From contig QPGO01000073.1 in assembly GCA_008632985.1 (NCBI GenBank), positions 186,001 through 250,000 on the forward strand: a stretch of 64,000 nucleotides of DNA, in the 5' to 3' direction. The notes under the pieces were generated by a model. That model worked only from the letters and a program-made list of their open reading frames with translations. It was not told the origin of the DNA and ran no database searches. The DNA is from Psammoneis japonica (lineage: Eukaryota). Shown here piece by piece: positions 2,384 to 34,652 of the stretch. How positions within the stretch are numbered: position 1 is the first letter of the stretch; each line of letters starts with the position of its first letter. The position numbers and the translations under genes are program-made.

Positions 2384-3763
2384 CTAGATGTGTTTCGTTG
2401 CATTGGTAGCCATGCATGATGATCCAGAACAAGTCGTCACCTGCTTCCCAAAGATGATTTTCTCCAGTTGATGCCATGACCTATAGCGTGACATGGCTAC
2501 CTGTCTTCCTCTGCAAGCAATTTCAATACGCTCCTCATCATGATCAAGGTAGTACTCCGCTTTGCTCGCCAAATCCTTTGCACTAGAGTACTCAACAATC
2601 GAAATACCATCTTGTAGTCCCTCTGGCAAGGACAGCATCTTGTCTGTCATGACAAGTGGTCCCGCCACAAGGGCCTCCATCAATCGGTAATGGTCTTCCC
2701 ATTTGTCCCTTTGGGCAAGCACGACGATCTTGCTGTTGAGCAAAGCCTGAATATAGCTTGTGGACACACCTTTGCGCCCTTGCGGCCCTGCGTCACCCGT
2801 CAAACCCAAAGAAAACTTGTACTCTGATCTTTCCTTTTGCATGTCTTGCAAGGTGTAAAAGACGACATCACGTAGCGACAAGGGTGACTTCTTCTTCTCG
2901 TAGGCAGCGGGCTCCCAAAAGTAGGCCACATCAAGGTCTCGCGGAAAGCTTGCAATAGAATCGCTAATCGAAGAGGAACGTGCGGTCAAAACGTCCTCAA
3001 TCGCCTGGACAATGTCGGTCCGAACTCCAATGGGTTTGTGTTGAAAAGGAATACCGTTCGGCCTCATTTTCTTTCCTAACTTAACCCATTTTTCAGTGCT
3101 TTGAAATTGGCGATCCATAACCACACATCGTTGATGATACTGAACACTGCCCATGAGGTGTTCCACTGGCTTGCATCGCAGAATATTGCAGTTGTCTTTG
3201 TTATCGACAAAATGAATCGGCCAGGTAGTGCTTAAACCCGCTTGGCTTCGATCAATTTGAGTTTGCTTGGCATTTTCCAACAACTGGGTGCACCAGAGCG
3301 ATTCGCCAGGGCGCCTTTCTAAGACTGTAGTAGGCGAAATCTTAGATGCAAGCTCCGATGCATCTGGTGTGTTCACAATCCACACCAAATTCTCATCAAG
3401 ATTACTCTCGGCGTTTCTCAAAACGGACGATTGAGCAAGCCCATCATCGAAAAAGTGTTTTACAAACGCTTTCTTTTTCTTCCCTTCCATGCGAGGAAGC
3501 ACGAAAACCGACACTGGATACACGGATGGCTCTTCAGCTTGCTTTGTTGCGAAACCATTCACTGGCTGCATGTTCAAATAGGTGCTGAAACTTAGAACCG
3601 CAAGAAGTTGAAAAAGAACCAACGACAGCAACATTAGTGTCATGATTGCCTGAAAGGGAAATCGAAGGCGAGTGGTCATCGTCAAGTGCGCCGCCATTCG
3701 TTGTATGATCATCCGCGTTTCGCATTCTCGAACAACTATCAGCTCGAAAACAAACAATGTCAT
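2384..3763 (-). CDS. Type II membrane glycosyltransferase-like protein (GT-B C-terminal, Glyco_trans_1_2-like)
   Basis: Hydrophobic anchor (LMLLSLVLFQLLAVLSF). C-terminal YIQALLNSKIVVLAQRDKWEDHYRLMEALVAGPLVMTD...YYLDHDEERIEIACRGRQVAM is typical of this family. The true start may be a downstream Met. Confidence 0.75.
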   Translation of the reverse strand: MTLFVFELIVVRECETRMIIQRMAAHLTMTTRLRFPFQAIMTLMLLSLVLFQLLAVLSFSTYLNMQPVNGFATKQAEEPSVYPVSVFVLPRMEGKKKKAFVKHFFDDGLAQSSVLRNAESNLDENLVWIVNTPDASELASKISPTTVLERRPGESLWCTQLLENAKQTQIDRSQAGLSTTWPIHFVDNKDNCNILRCKPVEHLMGSVQYHQRCVVMDRQFQSTEKWVKLGKKMRPNGIPFQHKPIGVRTDIVQAIEDVLTARSSSISDSIASFPRDLDVAYFWEPAAYEKKKSPLSLRDVVFYTLQDMQKERSEYKFSLGLTGDAGPQGRKGVSTSYIQALLNSKIVVLAQRDKWEDHYRLMEALVAGPLVMTDKMLSLPEGLQDGISIVEYSSAKDLASKAEYYLDHDEERIEIACRGRQVAMSRYRSWHQLEKIIFGKQVTTCSGSSCMATNATKHI

Positions 3764-4074
3764 GTTTGAGGCGATCGATTAGAGTTTGACAAGTGCGTTT
3801 TCTCGCAGCGCGCAAGGTGCAGATGCTACCGTATGGGTGTGCTGTCTACGTGTATGTCAGCAAGGCAGGGCATGCCACTTGTTGCCGGCACGACGCTGCA
3901 GAGATCTCAGCAAAAGCAAATGCCCAAGTGGGGTCAGTCGACTTCAGTGATGCCATTCTCAAAAGTGGTTGGGGTTGGATTGATGTGCATTTATTGCGGT
4001 GTACCGGTAGTCTCGCGCTGTGCGCTTCGTGCTTCGTCGTGTGTCTATTTGGGTGTCGCCTCATACTACCGGTA

Positions 4075-6979
4075 CAGGCAGGAGGCACAGTGGGAGCGCG
4101 AGAGCCGCCCAGAGACAGTCTGCCTGCAAACATTTGTGGAAGCACTCGACACAGAGATGTGGCCAATTTGCCGGAATTCTGCAATCACTTGGCCAAGCTG
4201 TTGCTTTTTGCTGACAGAAGGGCACAGTGGCTTGACACCCAGCATGCAAAAAGTGCTGTCTCAGCTGCGTTGAAGTGACACCAAGAAAAAATCAACAAAG
4301 TTGCTGTGCTGCACCTTCATCCATGGCTCACCTGCCTGCACCCATCTTCTCTCCATTGCGAGTGACCAAAAAGAAAGCTTCAGATGTTTGTGCAGAGCTG
4401 GTGTGTGAGAACCTCTGCGCACAAGCCAGGGGCATGCAGGGCAAAAGACGGGTGAGAATGAGGCCAGCCCAAGGATTTTCTCATTGCTCTGGTGGCGGCT
4501 GGTTGGAGGACATTGCAGGGCAGCCAAGGCATCTCCAAGAGGTGCCAACGACATTGAAATCAGCTGGTGCACTTTGCCACCAGGAGAAGTTGCTCAAGCT
4601 TGGCCAATGCTCATGTCTTCTTGTGCTGCAAGCTCAGAGCCTGCAAGCTCAGAGCCAATGCTGTTTTCCAATCTCGCGGTGGCCGCAACTCATGCAAGGA
4701 GCCTGGTGGGTGGGGCTGCAATGGCAACAGTGGCCACTCCTGTTTTGGTTTTTGCTGCCATTGCTGCCATGATTGTTGCTGCAATTGCAGCTGGCCAAAA
4801 TGGTGGCAGCCTTGTGGCTGCTGCCACAGCCTCTTCTTTGGCACCCACCGCTGTTGCGCCCATGCCGACCTCCTGAGCCACAGCCTCCATTGCATTGGCT
4901 GCCACAACCATCACTGTCACAATTTGGTTGCCCCCCCACAAATGGGTTTGTTGGGGGTGTTGCATCATTGCAGCCACACATGGTCATCCTGATGTGCCAT
5001 GCATCAGACAAGAGAGTTGCACATGGCTCAGGTGGGCTCTTGCCCTGCTCTCCTTCTTCAAACCCTCTGTGCATGTGCTGCAATTGCTGCACTTCCTGAC
5101 ATCAGCCACCCACTTGCAGCCCCTGCGTGTGTTTCTGTGTGTGATCCAATGCTGATGTCACCCTTTTCAGATGGTGTTTTGCTGGGTCCCCGGATGCCCT
5201 TTTGCCCCTTCTGCCATTGGCGCACCCTTGTTTCACTGCATGCGCAGTGATTTTCAATGGAAATGACTGGTGTCAATGCCTTGTGGTTCGTGTGCTTGTT
5301 GTCTCATTCGGCAATTTTTTGCACAGATTCAGCACAGTTTCTGCATGGATTCAGTGCAAATTCTGCATGCTTGAGAAATGTCCACTGATGATCACAACGT
5401 CTTTGATGCAATCAACTTCCATCCACACCCATCAGCCCTCAATGACTGCTTTTGCTCCTGCTGGCCACTCAAGTTTTTCACCTTGTGTGGTGACAGCACT
5501 GCCCCTCTTCTTGTGGCACTTGGGGAAATGTTTGTTCAGATTTCCATTTGCTGTGTGGATCAGCATTTCTGTGCAAGATTCAGCACCAATTCTCTGCATG
5601 AAAAAACACTTCTTCCAACATCCTTCTCGTCTTGTCACCAAGGCTCCCAATTTCATGCCTGCAAGTTCTGAACATCCCCTTTTCTGCTTGCTGGGCTTGC
5701 TGGCCTGCCAAGCTGGCTGCTCCAAGCAGTGAACTGTTCATTTTTGTTTCAGCAAATGCAAACGCGAAACTCAGCCAGTCTTTGTTAAAGACAAGACCCG
5801 CCCTTGGAAGCAAGGTTTTTCTCCCAGAGTTTGTGCTGACTTCGAACTCTCCACTTGATGCAACTGTCCTTTGCTGCAGTGGTTTGGGTGCTTTGAATCC
5901 TTTCTGAAAGAAAACAATGACCTCATTCTTGTGCAATTTCTCCTTGACCTGTTGTCTCTGGTGCACACTGCTGCAAAGTTGTGCACATTGACCGGCTGAT
6001 CACATGAACTTCTGCCGTGCCCCTCAAAGGGCATTCCGGAAGGGTGGGTGAGCCGGCACCAGTGTTGCTGGGCAAAGGTGTGATGGCACTTAAAATTGGG
6101 CTTGAGTTTTTTTTGCTGCAATTGCCACCACTGCTGCCATTGTTGTTGTTTGTTTTTCATCTTGTGGCCATTCTTGCTGTCAGCAAAAAATCTTCCCATT
6201 TCCCATGCAGTGCAGCACCTGGAGACCTGACAGTTGGGCAAGATGACAACAGACCTTTGCCCAAAAATGCAGCACTGATGCCAACCCAGCAGAAGGTGTG
6301 GAACAAAGCATTTCTCATCTGTTGTGCTTTGTGAGAGTGCTGGGTGCAGCTCTGGAAAAATTGTGGCTGCCTTTTCGGCAAGTCAGCAAACATGCATTCA
6401 CAACATTGTGGGTGGCAGATTTTGCACAAATCAAGTGCAGTGAGCCATGATTGGATGGTCAAAACTCTCAGCAGTTGGGCCCTCATAACTCCCATGCAGC
6501 CACACTCAAGCATTTGCTGGCAGCCAGCGTTTCATGCAAAAACAATGCTCAAAACAGTGGAGCAATTTGGAGTCCATCATGTGCTGCAATTGATGGGCAT
6601 CTTTGCAAAAAACAATCTTTCACATGCAACAATGCCTCAGTGCCATGCTCTCAGCAAAAACAGGGCACACACAAGTGTGCTCAGAGCTGTCGTTGCCCTC
6701 TTGCACATTGGCTCAATGTGCCCCCCCCTCCAAATGGGCAATGTGGACAAATTGTCTTGCACCACTCACAGCTTGGTGTGCAACACTGCAAACATGTGGC
6801 AATTGACCAATCAAGAACTAAAACTAAAGAAGAGACAAAATGCAGACCCGCTGAGTCCACATGGCGTGCACCAATGGTCAAACAAAAAATGAGAGCCCAG
6901 CACTGTGCGCAGCGACACAAAAGCTTTTTTGGCGGGTGGCAGCGCATGACGCGGGAGGCGGGAGGCACACGCCAGTGGC
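4075..6979. repeat. TpA/CpG-depleted degenerate repeat block B
   Basis: Only about five TA in ~2.9 kb (e.g. GTTAAAG, CTTAAAA, ACTAAAACTAAAG). Many overlapping Cys/His/Gln-rich, Tyr-free ORFs on both strands. Confidence 0.7.
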
Positions 6980-7375
6980 GACGCGTTCCAGACGTAGGTG
7001 GGAATCCGTGTGACATTGGGCCCGTAGACTTCTACGTGCGAGCTCCGTAGTAAAATTATACGGTAATTAAAATGTCAATGATCGCCAACAGAAAATGAGG
7101 CAATTTTGCGAACGCACAAACTCGCACATGATTGAAGTACATCATTTTTTACTTAGCCAGTTACATTCTTCAGACATTGAAGAATGTAACTGGCGCATTA
7201 TTGTTTCTATAAATTTGTTATATAAAACGTCTGGGGCTTCGCAAAACAGCGAGTCTGGACAATTTTTTTTAAATATCACACGTAGAAATCTACGTACGAA
7301 ACATACGACGGATGATAAAAATTATTGTTGTCACACGTCAGTACTACGAGCTCCCACCTAGGGCTGGAACGCGTC
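6980..7375. mobile_element. Non-autonomous TIR element (MITE), 396 bp, 4-bp TSD TGGC
   Basis: Left end GACGCGTTCCAGACGTAGGTGGG matches the reverse complement of the right end, GACGCGTTCCAGCCCTAGGTGGG (21/23). TGGC lies at 6976-6979 and 7376-7379. Subterminal inverted motifs GTGTGACA/TGTCACAC and GAGCTCCGTAGTA/TACTACGAGCTC. AT-rich interior with normal TA content. Confidence 0.75.
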
Positions 7376-7499
7376 TGGCAGTGTTTCCAATCATGAGGCT
7401 TTCTGCCCAGTGCCGCAAAATGATGCAGCAGCAAAGCAACAAACGACCGACTCTTCATCTTCGTGAAGCTTTTTCTCACATTTTTTTCACCGTGTTGTG

Positions 7500-8737
7500 C
7501 GAAGAGACAATGGGTGGGACGCCGAATGCTTGTTGCGGTCATCCCTTTGTTTTTGGCAAAGGTGGGTTTTCTTGCCTCTGGTGAGAGCGTGACATCTGCA
7601 ATTTCAACAGGATGAAATCTTTTCGCAGAGTCAGCACCACCATTTTGATTGCTTTGGCAGCATGCATGTCATTTCAGTCATTTTTTTTATCGTGCCTCAT
7701 GCAGCCACTCTCATGAATGAGAGGGGTCAAAAGTTTTCAAAACCGCTTTGGACGCGGTGACAGAACGATCTGAAGCAGCCTTTTGGAAGGCAAACCACAA
7801 GGGTTGCATCAGGGTGCTCAACTCCAGCACCATTCTCGACTGGGCTCCCCGTTTTCGACCTTTTCTAGACTCATTTGACGCGGATGTGGTCAACGGAACA
7901 GATTTAACACAGAGAGACAAGATCTGGGGTGGTGCAACCAGGGAGTTAGTTTTTGATGCAAATGTTTGCAGAGGTGCCAAGGCATTTCAAAATGCTGGCT
8001 CTGTGAAGTAGCGCATTTTGTTCACAGGTTTCAATGAGAGCTGCGGTGGCATTTCCACCCATGTGGAAGGGAGAACAGTTGACTGGGGCGACATTTTAGG
8101 GCATTGGAAGCGTGGTGGGGTGTGCCCTGGATGACGTTCTTTTGCACATCTAAATCACAGCAACACACTGGGGGTGTTCACTGTGCAACATCATTTCATG
8201 GAACATCCAAAAGTCCACTCGACTCCACTTGGACTCAAGCCTGCCATTTCTCCTCTCCTGTTGAAACACGTTCATGCATCTCCCATGAACAAAACCAAGC
8301 TGCTGATGATCAATGACAACGGCTGGAAACACAGAGCGAACATCGCCAGAGCTGTTGAGACAAATTTCAATGGGACTGCAAGGAATGCTCACAATGTGAC
8401 AAAACAACTTGAGCAACCACAGGAACGTTGCTGTGATGAAATGACTGAATCCAAGTTTGTTCTTTGCCCCTCCGGGTTGGGATGGGACACATGCCATCTG
8501 TGGGAGACCCTGATGATTGGATCAATTCCAAATGTTGAGCAGCACTGCAATCGCAGCGATGGCTGGCATGGAATGCTTGAAGGATTGCCGGTCTTGTGGG
8601 TGGAGAACATGGAACACCTCACACCAGCAGTTTTGGAGCATGAGCTTCAGGAATTGCCACAGAAGAGAATGTTTGAGCATGAGAAACTCACCAAGCTTTG
8701 GTGGGTGAATTTCGTCCATTCCTTGTTGCAACACTGA
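7500..8737 (+). pseudogene. Exostosin/GT47-like glycosyltransferase pseudogene
   Basis: ORF 8174-8737 reads SKFVLCPSGLGWDTCHLWETLMIGSIP...LPVLWVEN...EHEKLTKLWW. The family motif is F.LCP.G.G.DTYR.WE.L..GSIP, so YR has become CH. Upstream frames are interrupted and the 5' limit is approximate. Confidence 0.7.
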
Positions 8738-11700
8738 CAGATGAACCAAGGACACTCATTTTCTTGTGGCATGTCATGACCATCAACAGACGGTGAAATC
8801 AACTGACTGAGGGGTTGCCAACTTGAGAGTCATTTTGCCCAGCAATTGTTGAAATGGAACAAAATTGGTGATCCGTGTGTCCTCGCTTGTCAAAGTTGTG
8901 CGAACTCGTCCACGACGATGGTGCGAAGAAAAGCAAAAAGTTCCTGGGCTTGGCAGAATGACATGGGACGAAAAGCCGGGCTTTTCGCATGCACAGGTTT
9001 CAGTTGAAATCACAGTCTTGTGCCGGATGGTCCACAGCTCAACTGCAGAGGAGCCCAACTAGACTGATTGCAGTGGGATTTTTCAACCACTTGCTGATGA
9101 CACGTTCAAACTTTTTTGTCGCCAGGAGACACCAATCTGAGCTTCACCTCTTTCATTTCATTGGCTCGCATGATCTTCTGTGGATCAGCCATTGTCCAAA
9201 TCTGGTCTGTCCAGCAATTGCCGCATTTGTTTCTGTGGACTCAGATGGCCTCAATTCCTCCAATGTTGGCAGAGCAAGTCATCAGTTCATTCGGGCAGTG
9301 TCTGCAGCCATCTGTCTGTGACTCTTCATCTCACTTCTCAATCCCAAACTGCAAAAACATTTGCAAATGTGCTGACACTTCCGCTGTCAATGGTTGTGTG
9401 GCCTCCTGCAGCCAACAACATACCCAAGCTGCAACTTCAGCTGCCAGCGATGATCATTCTCTTGTGAGGTGTGGTCCTCTCCTTGCACATTTTTGCTGCA
9501 CAACCAACCAACCAGAAAAAATGAACAGATCATGCACAACAGCTGGCTCCCAATGAAAGTGAGGGTCATTTTGTTGTGCGGATGTGGCGTGCTTTTTGTT
9601 GTCACTGGGTTGAAGATTGCTCCTTCAGGGGTGCAAGCATGCACATCAAATTCTTTTGCATTTGTCTTGCCACCAGGACCCAACAACTGCACTGACATCT
9701 GAAGAGCTCATGCTCATGACATGTGCTGCAGTTGCCATGAAGACAATCACCACAGCTTGTCTCCCATTTCAAAGCTGGACAAAGAAAGCAGTCAAAAGCA
9801 GGGCAGTCAGAGGCCCGGCGCCCCAAGTCAGCAGCTTTAGATTCCAAGAGAAAAAGAAGGAAGCTTTGTCATTGCCAGATGGCTTTGCTGTTCCAGATGA
9901 CAGCAATGACAGTGACAAAGATGACGTGCCTCTTTGAGCTGTGACTGCCCGCCACCCAAGAAGGGCACATGTTTTGGCATGATGAGGAAAGGAGCACCAG
10001 TCATGCTGGGAAGGGGAGAAACTGCTCCACCCACAGCTGAGTGCTCGCCATGTTTGGAAGAGGACACTTGGGTCCTGGGCAGGGACTGCCATGGCACAGG
10101 ACACAAAGCACTTTGTTGTGGTCTCTTTGGGAGGGAAGCACCAAAAAGGGCAATGCTTTGAGCCACAACAAACTCCTCCATGGCAAGCAAGCAAGCATGC
10201 ATGCTCACTCTGAGCCACAGCGAGCATCACAGTTTGGTGTCTTTGAGCTGTGATTGGAGCAACACCTTGCTTCAAACTGCTGACACAAGTGTGTGAAAGC
10301 AAGCGACATGATGGTCAAAGTGCTCCAAGTGTGGGGAGCCATGAGCACACAAGCACCTTTGTGCCCCCAGCAAGCCACTGGTGGGTCCACTCTGTTTCAA
10401 ACCATCACACAATTTGGGCTGTCTCTGCTCTCAACATCATCACAAGTCACAAGAGCATCAAAGCAAGTGCCACATGTTGGGCACGCACAGCATCTCTGCA
10501 TGACTTTGGCAGCATTTTTTGCATCTTTTTGCAGCACAATTGCTGGGAACCCACTCAACAATTTTCAAATTTGTTTTGCACAAAACAGCTGGTCAGAGTT
10601 TGCAGAGTGTGCTCGCGCTCACAGATTTTCAATTTTTTGAGCATGTGCTGGAAGCACAGTTGTGCTGAAAAACTTGATTGCCCAATGTGTGAGCTGTTGA
10701 GCTTGTGGAGACAATTCTGTCATGTCCGTGGGCTCTCACCTGCCACCATGGCTGGAGTGCACACCCGCTGAGTGACACGAGCATTGCTGTGCTTCAAAAG
10801 CCAGGCTCTGAAGATGTTGCAGGCACCCAATCTGGCTGCACAATAAAAGAAGGCAAGCATGGTGGCATTTTGAGCCTCACAGCTGGCTGAAGGTTTCTTG
10901 CAATGCAAGTCCTGTCAGGAAGGGGAGATGTGCTGGCATCATGTGCCATGGTGAAAAGAGCACTGCCACCAGGGGTGGGGTGGTGCATGGCAGCAGCAAA
11001 TGAAGGAGATGAGAGTGGCAGAGGCAGAGGCACTGTTTTTTGTTGTTGTTGGATGTCAGCACAACAAGGTGTCTGTTGCAAGCTGTTGGAGCCAAAAGCA
11101 GCAAGACAAAAAATCTCAGATTCATTTGAGCACAGCCATCCAAGAGCAGTGCTGCAAACATTGACATGCACAGGGGCAACAGCACAAAACATGCACATCA
11201 CTTGCACATGATTGTCTTGCAAGTGACTTGTTGAAATGACCAAAATTTTTGTCAACTGTCTTGTGAGCTGAGAAAATGTGAAGTCATGCACTCCAGCTGC
11301 CCTCTGGCACTTTTGCCAGTTTGCCTCAGGGAGTGGGTGGCCAAGCGCATGGCATTGTCCTTGGCCTCAGCCACGCAGTGCCCCCAAAACAGTGGTGCCA
11401 GTCTAAGAAACATGCCATCATCACAAAAACAAAAGCACATCCACTGCAGCTGAAACTTGCTGTGCTTTCATCAGAGTGTGCACTGCAGTGATTGTTGAGG
11501 TGCTGCCTGTCTCACAGCAATTTGCAACCTTTTCACAGGTGACATTTTTGCACTGTGGCAGACAGCTGGTTGGGCACATGGTGAATGTGTGCCAACTGTG
11601 ACAGGCAAACATTTTCATGCTGTGGGGCACTGCCCCCCCCCCCCCCCCCCCCCCTCCTGTGAGGAAAACACATGTCACTGTGAAACAGCCACCCATTTTC

Positions 11701-11799
11701 CCTGTGAGAGTGCCCACCCTCTGTCCCTGCAAAACTGGCACCACCAATGCAGAGAGTGGTGGAACACAAGATTTGGAGTGGGGCCAAAAAAAAAAACAG

Positions 11800-12920
11800 T
11801 CAAGTTCAAAGAGATGGCACTCACTGTGCCAAGGAAAAACAAAGCCTCTGAGCTCCAATCACCTTTGGGACAAGACACCCATCAAGTCAATCTGGAGAAT
11901 GATCAACACAAGTGGGTGGACGCAGAACTCAAGTGGGGCAGACTCAAGGTTAGACTGCAAGCAGGCACATGGCACAATGTGGCAGCACCCCATGCAAAGC
12001 TGCCACTCAGCTTTGATGGCAACAAAGAACTCCAAAGCATTGAGGACACTGCAGCCCAACAAAGAACATGAGCTGGAAAATGTTTTGCATCACAAGAGAA
12101 CGCAAACTTGCTGCAGTCAAGTGACAGCTGCCAGATGTGCTCCCAGACTCATGCCACAAGCCTGGAGCAGCAAAGAGAGTGCAGAGACTCAATGTGGCAA
12201 CGTGGGTGCCAGTGTGTGACATTGAGTGCCCAACTCCACCCCTGGTGTGACTCAAAGAAAACACAGAAATGCTTGAGAAAGCATGCAAGGAAGCAAAAAA
12301 CATCCCAAGTGCCACAGAATGCACTTGATGGAATGGCTGTGGGAACAAGCACCACCTGCATGTGTGCCACAGTGTGCAGGGTGCTGCACAGATGACAAGT
12401 CACAATGGCTGAGTTTGCTCTGAACCTCTTGTGCTGCAGATGACTTGTCAATGACACAGTTGGAGTTTGGAGTGTGGGCTGGAAACAGTGGAGAGACTTG
12501 GGGACTTTGGAAGCCTTGAAAATGAGCTCAACAGCTCAGGCAACCTGCAGTGGGTTGCCTCCCCACTCTCCACCTCTGCAGTCTTTCTGGATCTGGGCAT
12601 GAAAATTGGAGAAGATGGGTGCATTGTTGCCAAACACATCAAAAACCAGCAAACCTTTGTTTGCACATGCTTTGTTTAAAGAGTGTCATTTGTGGCAACT
12701 TGTGATGATTCTGGATGCAAAGCTCTGATGTGCACAGTTGCACCAATGCTGCAGAAAAGATTGCAAAGAGACTTGTCATGAGAGGTCACAACCAAAATGC
12801 CCAGCCGCCACCAAGAGGCATGCCACGAGTGTCAAGATGGCACAGTTGCAACCACAAAACTCAAAAGATGCCCTGATCAAAACCCACCTTGACAAACCAG
12901 AAGGGGAGCAGGTCTCATGA
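11800..12920 (+). mobile_element. Degenerate reverse transcriptase relic, Penelope-like retroelement
   Basis: DGMAVGTSTTCMCATVC at ~12327 corresponds to GTAMGT..ACMYAT.Y. LCCR*LVNDTVGVW at 12429-12470 corresponds to LYYRRLVDDI.G.W. LNSSGNLQW...VFLDLGMKIGEDGCI corresponds to the FLDL motif. Boundaries approximate. Confidence 0.7.
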
Positions 12921-15615
12921 CACATTGAGCCACTGTCATCAGCTGACGGGGTCAAGTTGTTTGCTGCCATGGCCAGTTGTTGACTGACAACAACAAACAG
13001 AACAGTGCACGTGGGTTGTGACAGTGTGCGCTTTTGCTTTTCATTGTTTGGGGGGAGAGCGCACTGTTGTGAAGTGTGTGGAAAATTGTGCATGTAAAAA
13101 AAGAAAAAAAAACACTGAAAATGCCGTGGGCCAACGGGCTGTGCAAATCTGGGAAGTGTGAAGAAAATTGCAAATTGAGGGTGGGAGGGTGCATGCATGA
13201 GGTGGGCTGCACACATGCAAGGACACACACACATGAGCAGGGAGGACAAAGTTAAAACCAAGTTCAGTTGACAGGCATCAAAAGAAAAACAAAGCCAATT
13301 GAGACATCAGATGAAACACTCAAAACAAGCGCATTTTGTTGAACACTGTTGCTGACATTTTTCAAATTTGACTGGCTGACAATTTTGATGGTGGGTGTGC
13401 AAACATTTGCCAAGGAAAGTGGAAACCCCTGAATTGCACCCTCTGGTGTCCCACCAAATGTTGAGAGCCACACAACAACAATTTCCAACAAGACATCTCC
13501 ATCTCCAATCAGGCCATGCTGACTCTTTCAAGGATGCACCGGCACTGTTTTGGGTGGCTCATAATTTTCTGTTTTTTCTGGGTGGCACACCTCACCCACA
13601 CTGTTTTGCAGCACCTCTGTGCACCCCCAAGCACTTGTGATTGCAAGCATGTCTGCCCCCCCCCATCAAGGCTGTTGCGCTCAGACCTTTGTGCAAACTG
13701 CGCTCATCAGCCTTCAAATGCCAACTGTTGGATTTGGTGCAGGGCTGTGTTGTTTAACAGCAAACCACGGTTTTGGGCCAAACTTGCACTGCCCATGGCA
13801 GACAAGCCACAACTTTCCAGCAAATGCCAGCAATTTTTCCACAATCATTGTCTGCGCATTCCATGTGATGTCTTTCCAATGGACAATCAAGCTCTTGCTG
13901 AATTTTTTTGGCAAATGCACACTCAGTGTGGCGCACCTGGATTGTTCAAAAAAATTCACAAGCTCCAGACAAAATCAACTGTGCATTCTGTTTGTTTTTC
14001 AGGCCCCATTTTCACCATGTGCAGCACAGTGTCAAGGACAAACAAAATGGTCATTGCCCCTCCACATCATTGTCAATGCAGCCTGCTTCATTTTTCCAAA
14101 GATGCCTCAGGCACCTTCTTGCATTGAAAGTGTGAGGAAACAGTGCACACCACCCAGCAGCCCTGAAAAAAAAAGAGCTGTTTTGCTCATCAACACATGC
14201 CACCAGAGTGTCTGTCCATTGGATGCAAAGTCTGTGAGATTTCAACCATTCACCAAGCACTGGGATGACAATCGAATCTTTGGGAAGACAAGCACAAGAA
14301 AGGCATTTGAGCAGGAATTGCCGCAACTTTGGCCCAACATGTGATGGGTGAAATGTGAGATCATCACCGACAAAGCTGCAAGGCCAAATGTTTGTCAAAC
14401 AGCTGAGCCTTTCACAGTGAAAACAACCCTTCATTCGGGTCACTGAAATTTGTGCAACATTGTGATGTCTCTTGTTGCTTTGCAACAAAACAAGCATCGC
14501 AACCTCAAAAGACAACACATCAAGCAAAGCAATTGCATTTTAAGCTGCTCACAACGTTGGTTTCTTGACAATTTTGACAGTGCCTTGATTTGTCAATGTG
14601 AAGAGGGTTGATCCATCAAAAAAAGTGCTGCGCACCTCAAACTTCTTTGATCATGGCTCGGCACCATCATTTCTGCCACAGCCACACAACACAGCAATGG
14701 TGCAACAGCAACAAAAAACACATTTGTTTTTAAACACTTGTGAGTGAGTGGAGCAGGACAAATCATGGTGGTTGCATCGGATGTGTGTCATCGAAAGGGG
14801 TGCCATTCGATGTCATCGTGTTGTGGCCGACTTCGGGGACGAAACGATGTCAAGAGGACACAACATCCACAGCAATCACAATGCACACACTGTGTGAACA
14901 ATTTGTGATGCAATGGAATCAACAGATCATTGACATTTCTTTGACAGGGTTTGGGCGCATCATCGAAAATTTGTCACGCGCCATTGTTTTGTCTTCTTGT
15001 GCCAACAAAAGCAACCTCCGCAGCACCAAAAATGAGTTGCCAGCTAAAAAATTGAGCACATCTAAAAACATTGTTCATTTGATGATGTTGATGCATCAAT
15101 GATTGGATCTCTGCAAGGTGCTCGCTGTGTCGAAAATGCGCCGTTGCCGAAACAGCAGAGTTTTTGACTTGGAGCCACTTGGAGCATTTTCGCGGGGAGT
15201 TCGATGTTTTCAAGATCTTCGTCTTTAAAGATTTTTTGCTTCCTCTCGTAGAATCTGCACTGGTGCCTGCGTTTAAAATGATGTGTTTTAAAACTTTCCT
15301 GCTCATTCTACATCATTTTGATTCATCTTTTTGGTTTGGTTCATTCGTGCCTCGGCACCGTTTCAATCCCGAATCACGACTGAGGTTCATGACTCAAATG
15401 TTCAAGCGGCGAAATGAAGATCGCGAGTTCCTGTCGATCACCATCACTTTGAACTTCTTTCTCATCATCGTACCACTGCATTACTCCATTATTACTTCAG
15501 TGTTGGATTTAGCTAATTGAACTGCGTGTAATGCATCACCAACCATTGTGACAGTCGATCAACAGAATACAACACGAGCTAGAGAGAGTATCCGAGGCGA
15601 GTGACACCATAGGCA

Positions 15616-17848: not shown

Positions 17849-18055
17849 CTAGCTAGGGGGGCAGGAGCAGGGAGGCCGTCAAGGCTTCGCGAATCTATTT
17901 CTAGATTCTGTTTGCCTGGGCAATTTGTCATGTGCGAGTCCTTTCTCCTCGATAGTCTTCGTCTTGAGACATCTTTCTCAAAGTTTGTGGTGCTTACATT
18001 ATTAACAAGTCACAAGGCCTTTGATAGTAGGAACCTCTCCCTATTTTAAATCTGT

Positions 18056-18345
18056 CTCTAGTCCTGCACTTGATCGTTAGTTAGATATGGTAGACTCTAG
18101 GGCTACTAGCTAGTAGTCTAATAGTCTCCATATACTCTCTAGAGTGCTCTAGAGTAGAGCCTCTACTAGCTACTATTTACTAGCTAGAGCTAGTAGCTAC
18201 TAGCTAGAGTATAGTATCTAGCTACTACTAGCTAGAGAGAGCGTAGCTAGCTAGCTAATAGTAGCTACTACTAACTGCCGGTAGAATAGAGAGCTACCGT
18301 AGTAGAGTAGAGAGCGAGTACAGTAGTACTGTACTTAGCTTACAG
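18056..18345. repeat. CTAG/TAG/TAC-rich low-complexity intergenic tract
   Basis: Dense irregular repeats of TAG, CTAG and CTAC (e.g. CTACTAGCTAGAGCTAGTAGCTACTAGCTAGAG) ~350 bp upstream of the CHD gene. Confidence 0.75.
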
Positions 18346-18691
18346 ACCTCCCAGTAGTTTACGTAAAGTTCAACATCTTCTGTTCGTCTGTCATGCCTTA
18401 CGTTGCGTACGTGCTTCATCGGTCGTTGGTCTGTCATTCACCCAACTTCTGGTTTTTGGCGCGCCAACTGGTATAAGCTACGTGAAAACCTGCAGCATCG
18501 TAGAACAATACTAACAAATATGTATGTAAATGTCCGTAATAAATCGACGACCGCAGTTACAGTATCTCATCTATCGTCGTCTCGGTGTTTTTTGCTTCCT
18601 CGCTTCACAACGTCGAGGATAGGAGTCGTCGAACATAAGCCTGTGTTTCTGTTGCAGCGGCAGTGCTGATTATCAATCAAGACAACAAATC

Positions 18692-21600
18692 ATGTCGTCG
18701 ACCCGTGTTTCGAGAGTGGTAAGTCACTTATGTGTTCTTCTTATGGTGATTCACGGCATGTACAGTATTGATTCATATAAGTTACATGGGTTTTTTGCTG
18801 TTTTGCTCGCTCTGCCACAGAGTCAAGAAAATGACAATGGGGGAGAAGAAGAAGGAGCAAGGCGGCGTAATCCGCGTCGGGGAGCCACGGCCAAGTCTTT
18901 GAGCTTAACCGAGTCTGACCAAGACACCAACGACGATGACGTGGATGCCTCTTCTGCTGACGAGGAGGAGGAGTCTGAGGAGTCTGAGGACGAAGTGATA
19001 GAGGAGGAGAGGCCAACGAGAGGAGCCAGAAAGAGCAGCCGTAGTCGCACACGTACATCGGCACGATCCACAAAGTACACGGGTGCAATGATGGAGAGAG
19101 ACAATGATGATGATCTAATGGAAACAGACGGCGATGAAGTAGCTCAGTCTCCCCCCAAACGGCAACGTGCCAGGCGTGCGGCTGCACCCAAATCACCGGC
19201 GTCCTGTCATTCGTCACGCCGTCGCCAAGTCAAAACTCAAGTTATGATGTCTGGTGAATCCGATTCGGAATCTTCAGAAGAAGAAGAGGAGGAAGAAGAA
19301 GAGGAAGAATTACAGGACATGAAGATTCAACGCATTCTCGCCAGTCGCTCCGAGCCGCTCAAAAAGTGGAAAACAATTACTGCCAAGATGAATACCAGCG
19401 AAGTGGATTATGGGAGTCGGTGGTTTCAAGAGCCACCGGAAGACCAAGATGAGGATGACTTTGAAGAGCGGTTTTTGTGCAAATGGTCTGACTTGTCATA
19501 TTTGCACTGCTCGTGGGAGACTGAGCAGGACCTGATGGAGCAAGTGGATGGGGCCAAGACATATCTCAATACTTTTTTCCGTAAGTCCGAGAACGGCCTC
19601 TTTTACACCGCAGAAGAAAGGTGTGATGGGGATTATTTTGATCCGGCTTATTGCCAGGTAGATCGGATCTTGGAAATTGATGATCAGGAAGACAACGATC
19701 TCATCATGGACAAGGACGATCCTGACTACGAGGGAGGGACGGGTCGCCAATTTCTAGTCAAGTGGGGAAACACGCCTTATTCGCTTGCGACCTATGAGTT
19801 TGAACGGGATTTGATTCTCAACGAGGTCGATTACAAGGAGCAGTTGGAGGATTTTTTCCGGAGAAGGAAAAAAGTGAGCATTTTGAAGGTCTATGTGTAT
19901 ATCTTTCTGCACTTCATACTCATCCTTTTCTCTCTCTCTCTCTCTCTCTCTTGTCCACAGCCCACAAAGACAGAGCTCAAGGCGGCCTTCCGAAAAGGTG
20001 ACAAGGAGAGCCGCCGAACTTACAAGATTTTCAAGGAAGGGATGAGTGAAGAGACGCAAGTGCAAGACTATCAAAAGGAACTTGAAAACCACGTGTTCAA
20101 GAACGGGGGGCAGCTGCGCGATTATCAAGCGGTCGGGGTCTCGTGGCTCTTGGCCAATCACGTGAATAAACGATCTTCCATTCTGGCGGACGAAGTGAGT
20201 GTTATCAAATTTATGTGTACTTCGTTGTTGCACTTCATCAAACTGATTTTTCTTCTATCCGTTTTTCTAGATGGGCCTCGGAAAGACCTGTCAAACGGCG
20301 GTCTACGTGCATATGGTGGCGTCCAAATTGCAGCGCCCGGGTCCCTTTTTAATTGTTGCGCCTCTCTCGACACTCCCTCATTGGTACCGGGAGTTTTCGG
20401 CATGGACCGACTTGAATACAATTATATATCACGGGAGTGCGAGTGATCGAGAGTTCATCAGGGAATTTGAATTTGCCTACGAAGCGGACCGACCCGTTGG
20501 CGGCAGTGTGGGATTCAATCAAAGTTATCTCAAAAAGTGCCTCCCTAAAAAGAAGAAACGCAGCAACCCTAAAGATGAGATGCGCTGGATGGCACAGGTG
20601 GTTATTACGACACCGGAAATGCTCGTTACTGATGATTTCTCGGAATTAACCGCGGTCAAGTGGGATGTGCTCGTGGTGGACGAAGCGCACCGACTCAAGA
20701 ACCACGCTTCAAAGCTGGCGAATAACCTTCGTGATGAACGTTTTGAATTTGTCCAGACCCTTCTTCTGACCGGCACGCCTATTCAAAACAACATGACGGA
20801 ACTTTGGACGCTCTTGAATATTGTTGATCCTGAAAGCTTTGATTCCATTGACACGTTCTTGGGTGAGTACGGGGATATCAAGAGCAAGGAAAAAGTAGAC
20901 GAATTACATGAGCGCATTCGGCCCTATATCTTGCGTCGGCTCAAGGAGGACGTAGAAAAGAGCGTCCCGCCCAAGGAGGAAACGCTAATTGAAGTGGAGT
21001 TGACGGTTCTTCAGAAACAATACTACCGTGCCCTCTACGAGAAAAATGTTCAGTTTCTCCACCGAAACAAGAAAAAAGCGCTAGACGGCCCCAGCATTAG
21101 CAACCTTGCCATGCAACTCCGCAAGTGCTGCAATCACCCTTTCTTGCTGAACGGTGTGGAAGAAGAAGTGAGGGCGTCCCAGGAGAATATAAGCGAGGGT
21201 GACTTTTTAAGCAAGGCGTCTGGGAAGTTGGTATTGCTGGATAAGTTGCTGCCGCTTTTGAAGAAGGACGGGCATCGCGTTTTGCTGTTTTCGCAGTTCA
21301 AAATCATGTTGGATATACTGGAGGACTACCTCGCAGCACGGAGCATGAAGTTTGAGCGGATTGATGGTAGTATTACGGGGAACAAACGACAAATGGCTAT
21401 TGACCGATTCCAATCAGAGGACACCGGCAAAGATGATGCACCTTTTATCATGCTCCTATCGACTCGTGCCGGAGGAGTTGGTGAGTATTGGCGTGTGTCT
21501 GCTTATTTATGCTTATGGCGAGGGAAACTTCTCACAATGTTCCCTCTGGGATTGCACTTAAAGGAATCAATTTGACGGCAGCTGATACCTGTGTAATTTT

Positions 21601-30280: not shown

Positions 30281-30620
30281 TCAGACTTGTCCTTGTCGCC
30301 CTTCACACGCCACACCACAGTGTGTTAACTTTTCGTCGCAAAGATCTTTTGTCGAGCTCTTCAGGAGTTCCACAGATTCGTGCTTCTTGCCGCGGAAGAA
30401 GGACGCCCACCACAGCGGTGTTCCTCCTTTCCCACGGTTTGTTCTCTTGTTGACATTGGTCCCATTGTCAACAAGATTCTGCACAACTTCAACACTGCCA
30501 GCTCAAGCGGCCTCGTGCAAAGGTCTCCATCCGCCATTGGCATCCTCTTGATGAAGCAATGAGGCATCTCACACAAGACTGGCTCAAAGACAGCTTGGGT
30601 TCACCCCTGTTCTGGGTAAT
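30281..30620 (-). pseudogene. Ankyrin-repeat gene fragment
   Basis: Minus strand reads EDANGGWRPLHEAA*AGSVEVVQNLVDNGTNVNKRTNRGKGGTPLWWA. The internal stop is a TGA where CGA (R) is expected. Confidence 0.7.
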
Positions 30621-31830
30621 TAAAAGACTTGCTTCAGTGATGATGCTGCTTGGCTCAGATTCAAATGACACACCTTGAGCGTGGACATTGACACCAGCCA
30701 CTGATGACAAGAAGACCAATGGGGTGATGATGACACGGATGAAGAAGCTTCTGAAATTGACGACAATGCACCCAAGGAATGTGACCATTCTGGTTGGTCC
30801 CTGTCTGCTTCTGCTGCTCTCAACTGTGTGCTGAAAGTGTGGGCCAGCCGGTGCCGGCCTGGCTGGCAAAGGAGTGACACCACTTTAAACTTGGATTTGA
30901 TTTTTTCTCTGCAGGGTCCTCACAAGCCATTGGTGGCAGAACATCACTCTTTCTAAATCTTCCAGAGGCCAGCAAAAGTGATGGCAGAGTTGGTGCACCT
31001 GTCCTTTTTTTCTTCAAAGCCAGCACACTGGCTCTGGCACACTTGGCGCTCCTCAAAAGCCATGCCAGCATGCAAAAGAAGAAGCGACAGTGACGCAGTG
31101 GTGTGTTGCAAGTTTTTGGAAGAGACCTGTTCTAGATTCTGGCAAAGGGTTTGTTGTGACAGGTGCTGCTCTCTTGTTTGACAGAGCCCCTGTCCCCAGC
31201 TCAAAACAGACTCATCTTCTTTGCTCAGCACCGCTCACTGAACAAGCTTTGTGTCATCTGCTGGGGGGCGTTGTTCCTTGTGGACAAAGCTTGCACTGGC
31301 ACCAATGTTGGACAAGGCCGCTGATGACTCTCATTTGTGCTTCAATCAGTTTTGGTGCTCACAGGTTCTTGCAGCCACAGTGTGTTGATCTTGCTGCTGT
31401 GCTGCAGTGCATCTCTTTTTTGGCTTGCCATTTGAGGAGGGGGGTGCCAACAAAAGAGTGTGAGTGACACACATGTGGCACAAAGGACACAAAGAGAGGA
31501 AACATTCAAATCAGCAGAAAATTCATGTCTGGAGAGCAAATCTTCAAGCCAATGTAAGCAACACACAAAGAGGCTGCCAGCAAGGCACAGATTGGAGCTT
31601 GGAGCATGCACCCCTGCTGGCAGTGGGAGGTGTCACTCCCACATCTCGCCGGCCGGCTCTGCACTGCTTGCAGCAGACTTCTTTGCATGGAGACATGGCA
31701 AACAAAAAAGTTCACACACACACACACACATGCAGGGGCATTTTAGCTAGACTCAGCTTGAAAATAATGTGTTGTGGCCAATGGCTGCCCATGGCTCCTT
31801 TTGAGAGAGTGTTCACGCGAGTGTGATGCT
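30281..31830. repeat. TpA/CpG-depleted block D
   Basis: Few TA, mostly TTAA/CTAA/CTAG/TTAG. Tyr-poor ORFs on both strands. Confidence 0.65.
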
Positions 31831-32065
31831 TGCCTGTATGTCCTTGCTTCTCCCGTCAAAACGTGACGTCAGAGCGGCGGCAGCATCTGTCCATCGTCTG
31901 TTTTCGCGAAGCTAGTCGTAAATTCTACGCAAATCCATACCAAACCTCACATACACGATTTCCACATGGCTTCCTGGTATGGGTCACGCGACCGACACGA
32001 GCAACAACGACAACGACAAACGACACAAACACAACGAACATCATAACAACAAACAACAACAGACC

Positions 32066-32334
32066 ATGGTTCTTTTGACTGCAGCCGCCGTCACAGCCGC
32101 GGGTTATGGTGCCTATCGAGGAGGTAAGGCGCCATTGAGAGTACCAAGGAATCTCTCCAAAAACGAAAAGAACGAAAACCAATTTTGAAGGAACGAAAGG
32201 AATTCGCCAAGGATGCCAAACAGAAAAGCAAGGACCGTAAGGAGCGATTGGAAAAATTAAAAAGCATGCGTAATGAAAATAAACAACAGAAGAATAATGG
32301 GGGGTTATCGAGATTTCGACGAGGATCGAGTTAG
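32066..32334 (+). CDS. Small basic protein with N-terminal hydrophobic helix (requires a 1-nt frameshift near 32130)
   Basis: MVLLTAAAVTAAGYGAYRGGK continues in the shifted frame as AIESTKESLQKRKERK...RFRRGSS*. Preceded by a CAA-rich leader. Confidence 0.4.
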
Positions 32335-33051
32335 CAAGACGATACACACAAGGACCTCCAAAATATGCTCTGGGGATGAAACATACCGTTTTCTGTCTTG
32401 CACGCAGAAAACGCGACTGGCGGTTCCTCCCATACGATACAAACAAATGGGATGAAACTATTCATGGTTGCTTTATAACTCCAAGTATAGATCATTATAT
32501 CAAACTTCTGGTTTGTGTCTTTTACTCTAATTTGTGTTTTGTATATGGTGAAAATAAACATGCTGCGTAATTTGATGTTTGAAGCCTGCCCCTCAGTCCT
32601 ATTGACACCATGAGCTTATTACTGGGTATTGCTATGGAGGTTTGCTACTACTACTCAGACAAGCAAAACCCACGTGAGTTTTCGTAGCAACGTAAAAGTC
32701 GTTAGTTCGGCCTTGTAAAAAGCGCAATGATTATTTCCCAGTGTTGAGATTTTCAGAAACGTAACGTGCCGGTAGCTGGTAGTCTACAACACGAGAAACT
32801 CTCTACAGTATACTGAACGAGAAAAACAACAACAGAGAAACTCTCTATTGAACGGGAAAAACAACAAAAGTAGCACTATTCATAATATCAATGTAAAGAT
32901 TGGTTCTCTCTAGAGCTGTACTTGGCAGAACTAGTAGTAGAGAGAGAGAAACAATGCACGACACTACACAAACAGAGTTTAGTACCTATTACAGTACAAA
33001 CCCAGATTCCACCACCACTACTCCACCGCACTACACTATTCCACTTCTAAA

Positions 33052-34183
33052 CTACGCACGCCGATGAGGAATATACCCCTCCTCGACGTCGTAGGCTCGT
33101 TTCAAGGCCCGCCAGTCCTCCATGGTAAAGGCCACAACGGCTTGACGGTCCTTGCCGTGCTTGTTCATATTGGCAATGGCCCGCACCTTGGGTTGTCCGT
33201 CCTTTTCGACACTGATCCGGGCCGATCCCTTTTTAATCATGTAGGAAAAATAAAACATATTTTCCACCGTTTGTGTAAAGGAATGGGGATTCAACAGATA
33301 GGGAATGGCGTCGATATTGTACGACGCGCTGTCCTTTTTTAAAGCACGCATGGCTTGGGCCTGTTGGTCTTGTGGCAACGCTTCAATGGCGGCGGCCCGT
33401 TCCGCAAAGGCTTGGCGGCATTTGGCCGTGAGAGTCTTGTTGAGTACCTTGAGATTCTTTTCCACATGCGATTTCTTGGCCTTGTTTCGTGCTTCGTCTT
33501 CTTCTTCTTCTTCCTCCGGTTCTTCTTCGTCTTCGGATTCGACACGCGCCTTTTTCTGACGTTGCTTTCGTTCCTTGGGCGTATAGTCGGCCTGGAGTGG
33601 ACCGTTTAAAAAGGTCGTGTAGGGTACCGCGTTAAAACACGCTCCCGCTTCGTACGCCAACGTGTCCCACGCAAGACAGCCATTGGGCAAGCGGCATTTC
33701 TGCAACAACTTTTGTTTGAGCTTACCAGCGTCGTAGCGGGGAGTCTAAAGAAATAATAAATCACAAGCAGTAGTCAATAAAAAACTTTGCGCATACGCAG
33801 GTTCCATACAGAGCTCCATACACAAAAAGCATACAGTATACACAACACACACTCACCTGTACTAAATGATCCACTTGACGTGCAGCTCGAGCACTCATGA
33901 GATTGACATTATCCCCATCCAACACGGCTTCTCGTGTGTACTTGATCTTATCCCACAAGTGTGTCGATTGATTGCGAAGCGTACCAAAGGCTTGGTGGGA
34001 AGGATTTTGCAGCTCGACCGATTTGGAGGAAATTTCTTTTCCCAACTCTCGCAATTGACCACGAAGTTCACGTCGTTCACGATCCGTTTGACCCGACTCT
34101 TGCATGAGTTTGAAACGACCACGGGGGCGATCGTCGTCGTCATCTTGAGATGAAGGGGAAGAGCGTTTGCGGTGGGGCGTCAT
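33052..34183 (-). CDS. NSE4: Smc5/6 complex kleisin subunit Nse4; exons 34183-33857 and 33744-33052
   Basis: N-terminal RERRELR...TREAVLDGD and C-terminal LLNPHSFTQTVENMFYFSYMIKKG...QAVVAFTMEDW motifs. In-frame GT-AG intron at 33745-33856. Confidence 0.85.
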
Positions 34184-34519
34184 GGCGTGTTCTTGTTGCG
34201 TTGTGTTGTGACTGCGTTCGTTTTGTGTGAAAACATGCCGCCGCGCCAAACGGTGGATGGCGTAGGTTCTGGTACAAAGGGTACACAGAAGACCGACGCG
34301 GCTTTGGCCGGCGCGTAGAATCCTATGTGATTTATTCAGAAATTTAAGGGCGTATAAAATATTCATTTATGACTAATTTAAGTTATTTGAAATATATAAC
34401 ATTTTGGATATTGATGTTTATCAATGAAAATGCTAGCTTCACGACTATATATTTTCAATGATCCGACGTCATCTTTCGAAATTTCGTCTTGCCCACTTGG
34501 TTGCCAACACAGTGGTGAG

Positions 34520-34616
34520 CGGTTTCTTGTCCTTCTTCTTGGCAGCGTCACCAGCACAAACATGTGTGTGAAAGGGACGCGACTGTTGTGTGCAAGGCAC
34601 TGTTGTCATTGTTGAT

Positions 34617-34652
<36 letters not shown>

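Follow-up and report, generated by a model that had tools for sequence, protein, structure and literature searches.

TpA-void blocks in the diatom Psammoneis japonica are consistent with regional hypermutation of TpA in silent DNA

Targeted hypermutation of the dinucleotide TpA has been described in mutation-accumulation lines of the alga Bigelowiella natans where, in the available part of the preprint, 231 of 302 nuclear mutations fall within one insert of a nucleocytoplasmic large DNA virus (NCLDV) and one virophage insert (Mettrop et al., bioRxiv 10.64898/2026.01.13.699255, 2026). The same text gives 230 of these 231 hypermutations as A/T to G/C changes, all at TpA, at a rate of about 6e-7 per site per generation, some 1000 times background, in viral inserts that are silent; the genome is described as carrying 124 clusters of windows poor in TpA and rich in CpA and TpG, an ADAT2-like adenine deaminase is proposed, and transposons are suspected as further targets. 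Neither 'CpG' nor 'diatom' occurs in the available text of that preprint, and a full-text literature search found it as the one description of this signature and found no description of TpA loss in diatoms. Here, a 64,000-nt stretch of the diatom Psammoneis japonica (assembly GCA_008632985.1, contig QPGO01000073.1, positions 186,001 to 250,000 of the forward strand; hereafter the window) is analysed, which contains seven blocks almost free of TpA, termed voids, and a Ty1/copia retrotransposon, termed Copia, that is TpA-poor except in its 3' long terminal repeat (LTR). It is probable that a regional process acting at the level of DNA turns TpA into TpG or CpA in silent, mostly transposon-derived or decaying DNA and spares active genes. 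The diatom case would be a variant of the targeted TpA hypermutation reported once before, and then for viral inserts only.

Several other systems resemble what is seen here. Fungal repeat-induced point mutation (RIP) likewise hypermutates DNA regionally and at particular dinucleotides, disabling transposons and leaving a lasting compositional footprint beside normal genes. Diatoms have RID-related DNMT4 enzymes of unknown function, described in a paper that, in its available part, concerns cytosine and not TpA (PMC9998398). The CpG decay of methylated transposons, known for diatom transposons, is matched by the CpG observed/expected ratio (o/e) of 0.15-0.4 in the voids and by their excess of TpG and CpA. 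Hyper-editing of animal retroelements by ADAR or APOBEC enzymes shares the deaminase-type transitions, the preference for particular neighbouring bases and the inactivation of mobile elements.

The window as a whole is 49% G+C and contains 1,713 TA at an o/e of 0.41, with CA (1.35) and TG (1.39) both in excess. Successive TA lie a median of 16 nt apart, and yet TA-free runs extend over 1,811 nt (49263-51072), 1,713 nt (4074-5785), 1,122, 1,051 and 1,006 nt. The seven voids were delimited as follows.

1883-2320, void v1: 438 nt with 0 TA and CG o/e 0.38, sitting between two genes
4075-6964, void v2: 5 TA, TA o/e 0.03, CG 0.24, CA 1.82, TG 1.87
7379-15044, void v3: 20 TA, TA o/e 0.04, CG o/e 0.25
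30327-31554, void v4: TA o/e 0.06, CG 0.31
34451-35040, void v5: 2 TA, abutting the Copia 5' LTR
49263-51072, void v6: 0 TA in 1,810 nt, CG o/e 0.15
59856-64000, void v7: 7 TA, TA o/e 0.02, CG 0.15, continuing beyond the end of the window

Summed, the voids contain 39 TA in 18,767 nt, against 1,240 predicted from base composition and 754 predicted from the o/e of the non-void sequence (0.608; Poisson P = 3e-262). Their TA o/e is 0.03 and their CG o/e 0.231, and the enrichment of CA (1.80) equals that of TG (1.84), i.e. it is symmetric across the strands; the corresponding values over the 38,398 nt of non-void sequence are TA 0.608, CG 1.025, CA 1.15 and TG 1.18. An earlier note on this DNA had described near-TA-free blocks covering about 40% of the window, and the count bears this out, the voids together with the 5' LTR and interior of Copia making up 40.0%. 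Its statement that the intervening genes are normal in TA and tyrosine also holds, given a TA o/e of about 0.6 in the genes and a Tyr content of 2.7% (His 2.5%) in host proteins. The loss of CpG that is co-located with the voids was absent from that note, and the gap that it left between two of its blocks, at 6965-7378, is an unmutated insertion resembling a miniature inverted-repeat transposable element (MITE).

The transitions, which had been placed within tens to a few hundred bases, are found to take from a few bases to about 200 nt. Edges are near-base-sharp at 34450/34451, 2320/2321 and 4073/4074, the last of which had been singled out as an example at about 4062-4078 and indeed shows TA at 4064, 4067 and 4073 and then none before 5786; they fade over about 200 nt at 15045-15226, where TA returns gradually at the right of void v3, and at 31555-31744 and 51073-51298. 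The distance from a gene start to the beginning of the void upstream of it is 311 nt for gene 2384-3763(-) and void v2 and 85 nt for gene 33761-34366(-) and void v5. Genes lying 64-570 nt from void edges still have a TA o/e of about 0.6, silent sites included, and intergenic DNA retains a TA o/e of 0.5-0.9 over several kilobases (47776-49262 and 51073-54254, with the foldback element 53085-53595). The CpG-void is nested within the TA-void: CpG is retained 200-400 nt inside the TA-void edges, and at void edges and in a pseudogene segment described below, CpG is partly kept (o/e 0.4-0.57, as over the left 1.4 kb of void v3) where TA has already gone.

The direction of change, from TA to TG or CA, is recorded in two unrelated coding sequences. 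Tyrosine codons are TAY, histidine codons CAY and cysteine codons TGY. The first of these sequences lies in a void.

7721-8734, + strand: GT47/RXYLT1-type glycosyltransferase pseudogene with two in-frame stops and no Tyr, inside void v3

Its open reading frame (ORF) 8135-8734 matches the Pfam families RXYLT1_C (1.1e-7) and Exostosin (1.2e-5), and the pseudogene, when read through its stops, has 24 relatives, of which the best stands at 4e-81 and 46% identity; the one that is named comes from Nitzschia. At nine columns where Tyr is conserved among 17 homologues, the pseudogene carries His five times, Cys twice, Leu once, Phe once and Tyr not at all; when each homologue is tested against the rest, 133 of 151 cells are Tyr, three are His and none is Cys (Fisher P = 9e-9 for the contrast with the pseudogene). 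The pseudogene also bears stops and many changes away from TA.

The second coding sequence is that of Copia, which is composed of the following parts.

35041-42151, + strand: Ty1/copia element with 276-nt LTRs 96% alike, RVT_2 and the target-site duplication AACTC
35041-35316, + strand: 5' LTR, 4 TA
35317-41875, + strand: interior, carrying an open 1,899-aa frame (36229-41928) with RVT_2
41876-42151, + strand: 3' LTR, spared, 13 TA, o/e 0.70

Across the 5' LTR and interior the TA o/e is 0.21 and the CpG o/e 0.93, so that the sequence is TA-poor with its CpG intact; the loss of TA is independent of the loss of CpG. The block that the earlier note had drawn at 34520-42151 is therefore TA-poor as claimed but composite, since it joins an old void (34451-35040) to a CpG-normal Copia (35041-42151) whose 3' LTR is TA-normal. 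The 1,899-aa frame contains 0.9% Tyr and 4.7% His. At 47 columns where Tyr is conserved among 60 relatives of 59-71% identity, it reads Cys 20 times, His 10, Tyr 12, Phe four and Trp once, against 2,501 Tyr, 35 His and 16 Cys in 2,773 control cells (P = 3e-37). At columns conserved for other residues the frame has changed little (Phe 32/34, Trp 22/24, His 32/33, Arg 62/66, Leu 78/83 and Ile 34/42 retained), and the damage is therefore confined almost wholly to TA; Arg codons that contain CpG are undamaged, matching the CG o/e. Change in the reverse direction, to Tyr, was found at none of the 33 conserved His and none of the seven conserved Cys columns. The frame has remained open because a change of TA to TG or CA never makes TAA, TAG or TGA from a sense codon. 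On the sense strand the outcome is more often TG than CA (27 vs 12, P = 0.02). Codon usage was considered as the cause of the TA-poverty of Copia and is rejected by the conserved-Tyr columns and by the normal state of related loci.

The two LTRs of a retrotransposon are identical at insertion. Those of Copia now differ by 10 substitutions in 276 nt, nine of which are TA in the 3' LTR and TG (seven) or CA (two) in the 5' LTR, the tenth being CG against CA; in all 10 the G/C stands in the 5' LTR and the A/T in the 3' LTR. The 5' LTR thus has TG or CA at nine of the 13 sites at which the 3' LTR keeps TA, and the opposite direction does not occur (9:0, P = 0.004). Taking TA as the probable older state at these nine sites, the 5' LTR has been hit about 1.2 times per TA, while both LTRs together show one other change, a difference of about 300-fold per dinucleotide that is set against a single background event. 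The loss is alike in the 5' LTR (9/13) and in the interior Tyr codons (30/47), and the first TA after 41651 is at 41912, close to the boundary between interior and 3' LTR. To its left Copia adjoins the old void v5 and to its right a TA- and CpG-rich 241 nt that precedes the start of gene 42392-43870(+); the spared 3' LTR is the one that adjoins a promoter. Copia is not a recombinant, because its target-site duplication AACTC is intact. Since the LTRs were identical at insertion and now differ, the change would have come after insertion, on DNA, and would have halted at a boundary; the pattern fits a single episode in place over the 5' LTR and interior that ended where the 3' LTR begins. If this polarity holds, the data support both regional confinement and an action on DNA that followed insertion.

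The same direction is found in DNA that does not derive from a retrotransposon, where an intact element and a decayed one can be compared.

6965-7378: MITE-like insertion with terminal inverted repeats, 31 TA, TA o/e 0.91 and CG o/e 1.5, unmutated
63523-63723, + strand: relic in void v7, a copy, now decayed, of the intact MITE (6965-7378)
61196-61722: inverted-repeat element in void v7, arms about 85 nt and 88% alike

The relic aligns to the intact MITE with a score of 156, where the shuffle maximum is 52.5 and all other void tiles score at most 58. Where the intact MITE has an aligned TA (13 sites), the relic reads CA seven times, TG three times and other dinucleotides three times, and at 14 CG it has TG five times, CA five times and others four times. 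The arms of the inverted-repeat element differ as CA vs TA, TG vs CG and TG vs CA. In the foldback element of TA-normal DNA (53085-53595; arms 53122-53284 and 53391-53553, 163 nt, 95% alike), the arms differ at eight places, never as TA against TG or CA. Alone in the read-covered voids, a piece of void v4 (30358-30569) is matched by a similar sequence at another place in the genome, and this look-alike has TA at three sites and CG at four where the window reads CA or TG, with one CG site in the opposite sense. A few bases separate the end of the intact MITE-like insertion from the first ATG of the pseudogene in void v3.

The TA that remain are biased in context. In the voids 27 of 37 residual TA lie in YTAR (TTAA 14, CTAA five, TTAG five and CTAG three), whereas outside the voids the proportion is 236 of 1,524 (15%; odds ratio 14.7, P = 3e-14). 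The LTR pair shows the same bias, as YTAR sites are unchanged between the LTRs in three of three cases and other TA sites in one of 10 (P = 0.014). A one-strand target motif, TAY, is ruled out by three GTAR sites of the LTR that read GTGR in the 5' copy and by Tyr codons that gave His as well as Cys.

Read support comes from three runs of one sample (X1, X2 and X3), held as contigs, of which X1 contains 0.81 of the sampled words of 2400-12399 and may derive from the source sample of the window; contigs of all three were placed on 30300-50299. Contigs of X1 reproduce voids v4 to v6 with zero or one other letters per contig and span the edges at 34451 and 49263, and contig joins, an alternative that had been raised, are thus not the cause of these voids. 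That these contigs were not copied from the window assembly is shown by the small indels that they carry relative to it, all outside the voids (32062, 33747, 33778, 45228, 45923, 46142, 47615, 48244 and 48253). The X1 word depth is 46-57 on voids v5, v6 and the right part of v4 and 49-70 on genes; these voids look single-copy, with the caveat that contig depth is not a copy number.

The bins of Copia sum to a word depth of 66,000-147,000, with 13,461 contigs placed, which makes it the most repeated element in the window and indicates a very abundant family. Variants of this family in X1 comprise transitions at 227 places and transversions at 59. Among the best-supported variable sites listed, 37256 and 37298, both in Tyr codons, are TA in the window and TG in most Copia copies, and 40346, 40559 and 41297 are TG or CA in the window and TA in 15-49% of the depth. 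At three of the listed dinucleotides (39331-2, 41115-6 and 40426-7) Copia copies show CA vs TG, and therefore an ancestral TA or CG was hit independently on either strand; RIP-type change cannot yield such double sites.

Related Copia loci were found in metagenome contigs by peptide patterns free of Tyr, so that the search itself did not shut out hypermutated copies. The 78 loci have a TA o/e of 0.35-1.01 and TA-free runs of at most 409 nt, and in the 74 with enough aligned Tyr, the Cys/His share is at most 0.09 (median 0.03), against 0.57 in the window copy. The signature of TpA loss was thus not found among these loci, which are unnamed environmental contigs and do not indicate that other diatoms lack it. 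Many of them are CpG-decayed (CG o/e 0.09-0.5). In five (L010, L025, L030, L043 and L076), the CpG o/e is 0.09-0.24 with Tyr and TA normal, which is CpG decay with no loss of TpA.

It is suggested that in silent DNA TpA would be turned into TpG or CpA by A:T to G:C transitions on either strand, active genes and about 60-600 nt around them being spared. The loss of TA would be far faster than ordinary mutation and would run near to completion, with YTAR (TTAA, CTAA/TTAG, CTAG) resisting; frames would stay open while the replacement of Tyr by Cys or His would ruin the encoded proteins. A slower decay of CpG to TpG or CpA would then follow, as expected from cytosine methylation of the same DNA, and the CpG decay in the voids fits methylation of long standing. 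Old voids (TA o/e 0.03, CpG 0.23) would have passed through both processes and Copia (TA 0.21, CpG 0.93) would represent an early stage. The loss of TA is the faster process and the decay of CpG a slower and separate one, because Copia has lost TA only and the voids have lost both. The target may be set by silent or heterochromatic chromatin, with boundaries drawn by neighbouring promoters, and the chemistry may be enzymatic deamination of adenine in DNA to inosine, which is read as G, by analogy with the proposal for Bigelowiella natans.

The earlier note had placed a mutator in chromatin domains, probably the methylated or heterochromatic repeat compartment, of which it would leave a permanent sequence map. 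A context-specific mutator that is confined to domains and leaves a lasting map is supported, its direction by the Tyr columns and the MITE relic and its confinement by the 9:0 ratio between the LTRs and the normal TA of genes close to void edges. A single process that marks methylated DNA does not stand, as there are two processes of different speed, with CpG loss nested inside the TA void. The repeat compartment stands in part: the MITE relic, the inverted-repeat element and the Copia that abuts void v5 are transposon pieces in or beside voids, but the read-covered voids (v5, v6 and the right part of v4) show single-copy depth, the voids share no sequence similarity, the most repeated element (Copia) is only partly TA-depleted and not CpG-depleted, and the intact MITE is spared.

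The origin of most void DNA is less readily traced. Of 144 stop-to-stop ORFs of at least 70 aa in the voids, one, that of the glycosyltransferase pseudogene, has a credible Pfam match; six further matches have E values of 0.001-0.007, all below the curated cut-offs, and no viral domain was found by Pfam among the 144. The translations look random. As TGA is the sole stop left in the voids, chance open frames reach up to 259 aa, e.g. 13565-14341. No similarity between voids was found by blastn beyond the MITE relic and the inverted repeat of void v7.

A number of these observations, and some others, weigh against a process aimed at silent, mostly transposon-derived DNA. The remaining 143 of the 144 void ORFs have no credible Pfam match, void ORF lengths do not exceed the expectation from dinucleotide shuffles except in the top-five mean of void v6 (188 aa, against a shuffle 95th percentile of 158), and codon periodicity in the voids is at chance level. 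Transposon or foreign ancestry is demonstrated for small parts of the voids only, and X1 word depth on the right part of v4, on v5 and on v6 is that of single-copy DNA. That the chromatin is silent is suggested by CpG decay and by boundaries beside gene starts, and the probable polarity of the LTR differences rests on parsimony together with the Tyr evidence. The reads come from one sample, as contigs, with the sequencing platform not on record. The unmutated MITE lies inside the largest void, so that either the process is episodic or inactive there or the insertion is very recent. Furthermore, ADAR prefers UAG and the natural site of ADAT2 is Y-U-A, neither of which predicts the resistance of YTAR.

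It is possible that the voids are simply the oldest neutral DNA, in which a slow, untargeted, genome-wide bias from TpA to TpG or CpA has run its course while selection has kept TA in genes and promoters. The voids do occupy intergenic space, ending 64-570 nt from coding regions, most of their DNA is non-coding in appearance, and their CpG decay marks them as old. This scenario is improbable, given that two LTRs of equal age, both non-coding, stand at 9:0 in TA loss, that kilobases of intergenic DNA keep a TA o/e of 0.5-0.9, that genes stand at 0.6 with their silent sites included, and that about two thirds of the TA of Copia are already gone although its LTRs show no more than 10 substitutions over 276 nt, which calls for a rate well in excess of background. 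Alternatively, the RNA or cDNA of a transposon may have been edited, by ADAR-like A-to-I conversion or similar, and the edited copy then inserted. The hardest-hit recognisable element is indeed a retrotransposon, its sense strand favours TG over CA, and ADAR favours U before the edited A (10.64898/2026.01.13.699255, available part). However, reverse transcription equalises the LTRs, and nine TA sites differ between them; the same signature marks the relic of a DNA transposon, a pseudogene of host type and anonymous DNA at single-copy depth, and CA and TG are equally enriched on both strands of the voids, all of which makes editing before integration very improbable.

The LTR pair and the look-alike of the v4 piece can each, taken alone, be read either way, which raises the possibility that the TA-poor state is original and that the copies bearing TA were altered by a RIP-like conversion of C to T (CpA to TpA). 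Such a process in the 3' LTR would give the same picture, with all 10 differences G/C in the 5' and A/T in the 3' LTR. Nevertheless, this is the least credible of the alternatives: Tyr to Cys/His is polarised in two unrelated genes, no CpA to TpA process is seen in Copia since none of its 40 conserved His or Cys columns became Tyr, CA vs TG at one site is impossible from CpA to TpA, Tyr is normal in 74 related Copia loci, and RIP would have scattered stops through a 1,899-aa frame that is open. Only slightly more credible is an artefact, raised by the earlier note, in which a modified base at TpA (and 5-methylcytosine at CpG) in heterochromatin is systematically miscalled. The platform is not on record and all runs come from one sample, but the k-mer contigs of X1 reproduce voids v4 to v6, cross void edges and carry small indels that show them not to derive from the window assembly, the pseudogene has stops and many non-TA changes, and thousands of Copia contigs show sites that are polymorphic and not uniformly converted. 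A different chemistry for the same regional process is unlikely but deserves more weight, namely that the thymine of TpA is modified (e.g. oxidised to 5-hydroxymethyluracil or beyond) and mispairs with G, so that T becomes C. The outcome in double-stranded DNA (TA to CA and TG) is identical to that of damage to adenine, and the data of the window fit both; on the other side, the sole proposal published for this signature, in the available part of its source, is adenine deamination by an ADAT2-like enzyme, itself a proposal.

Regional conversion of TpA on DNA is thus the reading to be compared with the systems introduced above. As far as the available text of the preprint goes, Bigelowiella natans is alike in that TpA only is affected, with strand-dependent TpG or CpA as the product, in that the change is regional with the rest of the genome ordinary, in that the target is silent (which is probable here) and can be single-copy, and in that the genome carries TpA-poor clusters rich in CpA and TpG, there partly with reverse-transcriptase and DDE domains. 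It differs in being a rhizarian chlorarachniophyte, where P. japonica is a diatom and hence a stramenopile, and in that its target is integrated viral DNA, where here the targets are Copia, a MITE relic and a host-type pseudogene, with no viral domains. Depletion is near-total here (o/e 0.03) and stands at a Rho of 0.45 in the NCLDV region there; the superimposed CpG decay, the resistance of YTAR and the boundary at an LTR within an element are seen here; and ongoing mutation was measured there, where here it is deduced from its traces. Fungal RIP changes C:G to T:A, mainly CpA to TpA, and so raises TpA and makes stops, whereas here TpA is erased, G+C is about 50% and no stops are made; RIP also requires duplicated sequence, whereas here voids v5, v6 and the right part of v4 have single-copy depth and the repeated Copia is hit as well. 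The CpG decay of methylated transposons cannot remove TpA, and Copia lost TA with no loss of CpG. ADAR and APOBEC act on RNA or cDNA before integration, strand-asymmetrically and on retroelements only; here, the two LTRs are unlike, the change falls on both strands, and it extends to the MITE relic and the pseudogene.

The process may act as genome defence. A stronger proposal, that diatoms, or this lineage at any rate, possess a dedicated DNA-editing defence that is guided by chromatin and is the reverse of RIP, being TpA-erasing, YTAR-sparing and promoter-bounded, is plausible but can be put forward only tentatively. An enzyme, most simply a DNA adenine deaminase, would be recruited to newly silenced DNA and would kill transposon proteins by turning Tyr into Cys or His, never by a stop codon. 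If this is true, the map of TA voids would be a fossil record of past heterochromatin and, given the same signature in a rhizarian alga, the system would either be old within SAR (stramenopiles, alveolates and Rhizaria) or have evolved repeatedly. In the diatom case depletion is near completion, the retrotransposon family that is hit is very abundant, a boundary can be read and one sequence context resists, and the idea can be tested in a group for which genetic tools exist; TpA vs YTAR substrates would provide a target for enzyme assays, and a natural DNA adenine deaminase would be of interest for base editing. There is also a risk to annotation, since voids hold chance frames of up to 259 aa and hypermutated transposons keep intact-looking frames that mislead the calling of genes and of "active transposons", and dating by LTR divergence is badly inflated unless TA sites are masked. 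DNA free of TA would also offer no target to those transposon families that insert at TA or TTAA.

Elsewhere in the window, long intron-free frames encode a ricin-type lectin, glycosyltransferases, a CHD-type chromatin remodeller, CreA, sideroflexin and Nse4. The named relatives of the sideroflexin are all from diatoms (Nitzschia, Mayamaea, Pseudo-nitzschia, Cyclotella and Striatella; best identity 72%), which by itself places the host among the diatoms, with its own proteins absent from the collection searched.

18692-21575: CHD-type chromatin remodeller, chromo-domain and SNF2-helicase frames

Upstream of the start of this CHD-like gene at 18692, a low-complexity tract of CTAG/TAGCTA-like words that is rich in YTAR occupies 18060-18330, and the bin that contains it (18001-18500) has 71 TA at an o/e of 1.79. 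Microsatellites of (GA)n occur at 34618-34648 inside void v5 and, on the opposite strand, at 19925-19953 in the CHD-like gene region. On the minus strand at 44016-47775, three long frames of 434, 440 and 768 aa overlap in different phases and have no Pfam match; X1 contigs show small insertions relative to the window within this region, at 45228, 45923 and 46142, and the three frames may belong to a single gene, broken up in the window assembly by erroneous or allelic indels. A 687-aa open frame at 57271-59334(-), also with no Pfam match, contains about three internal repeats of 550-680 nt that are 70-87% alike.

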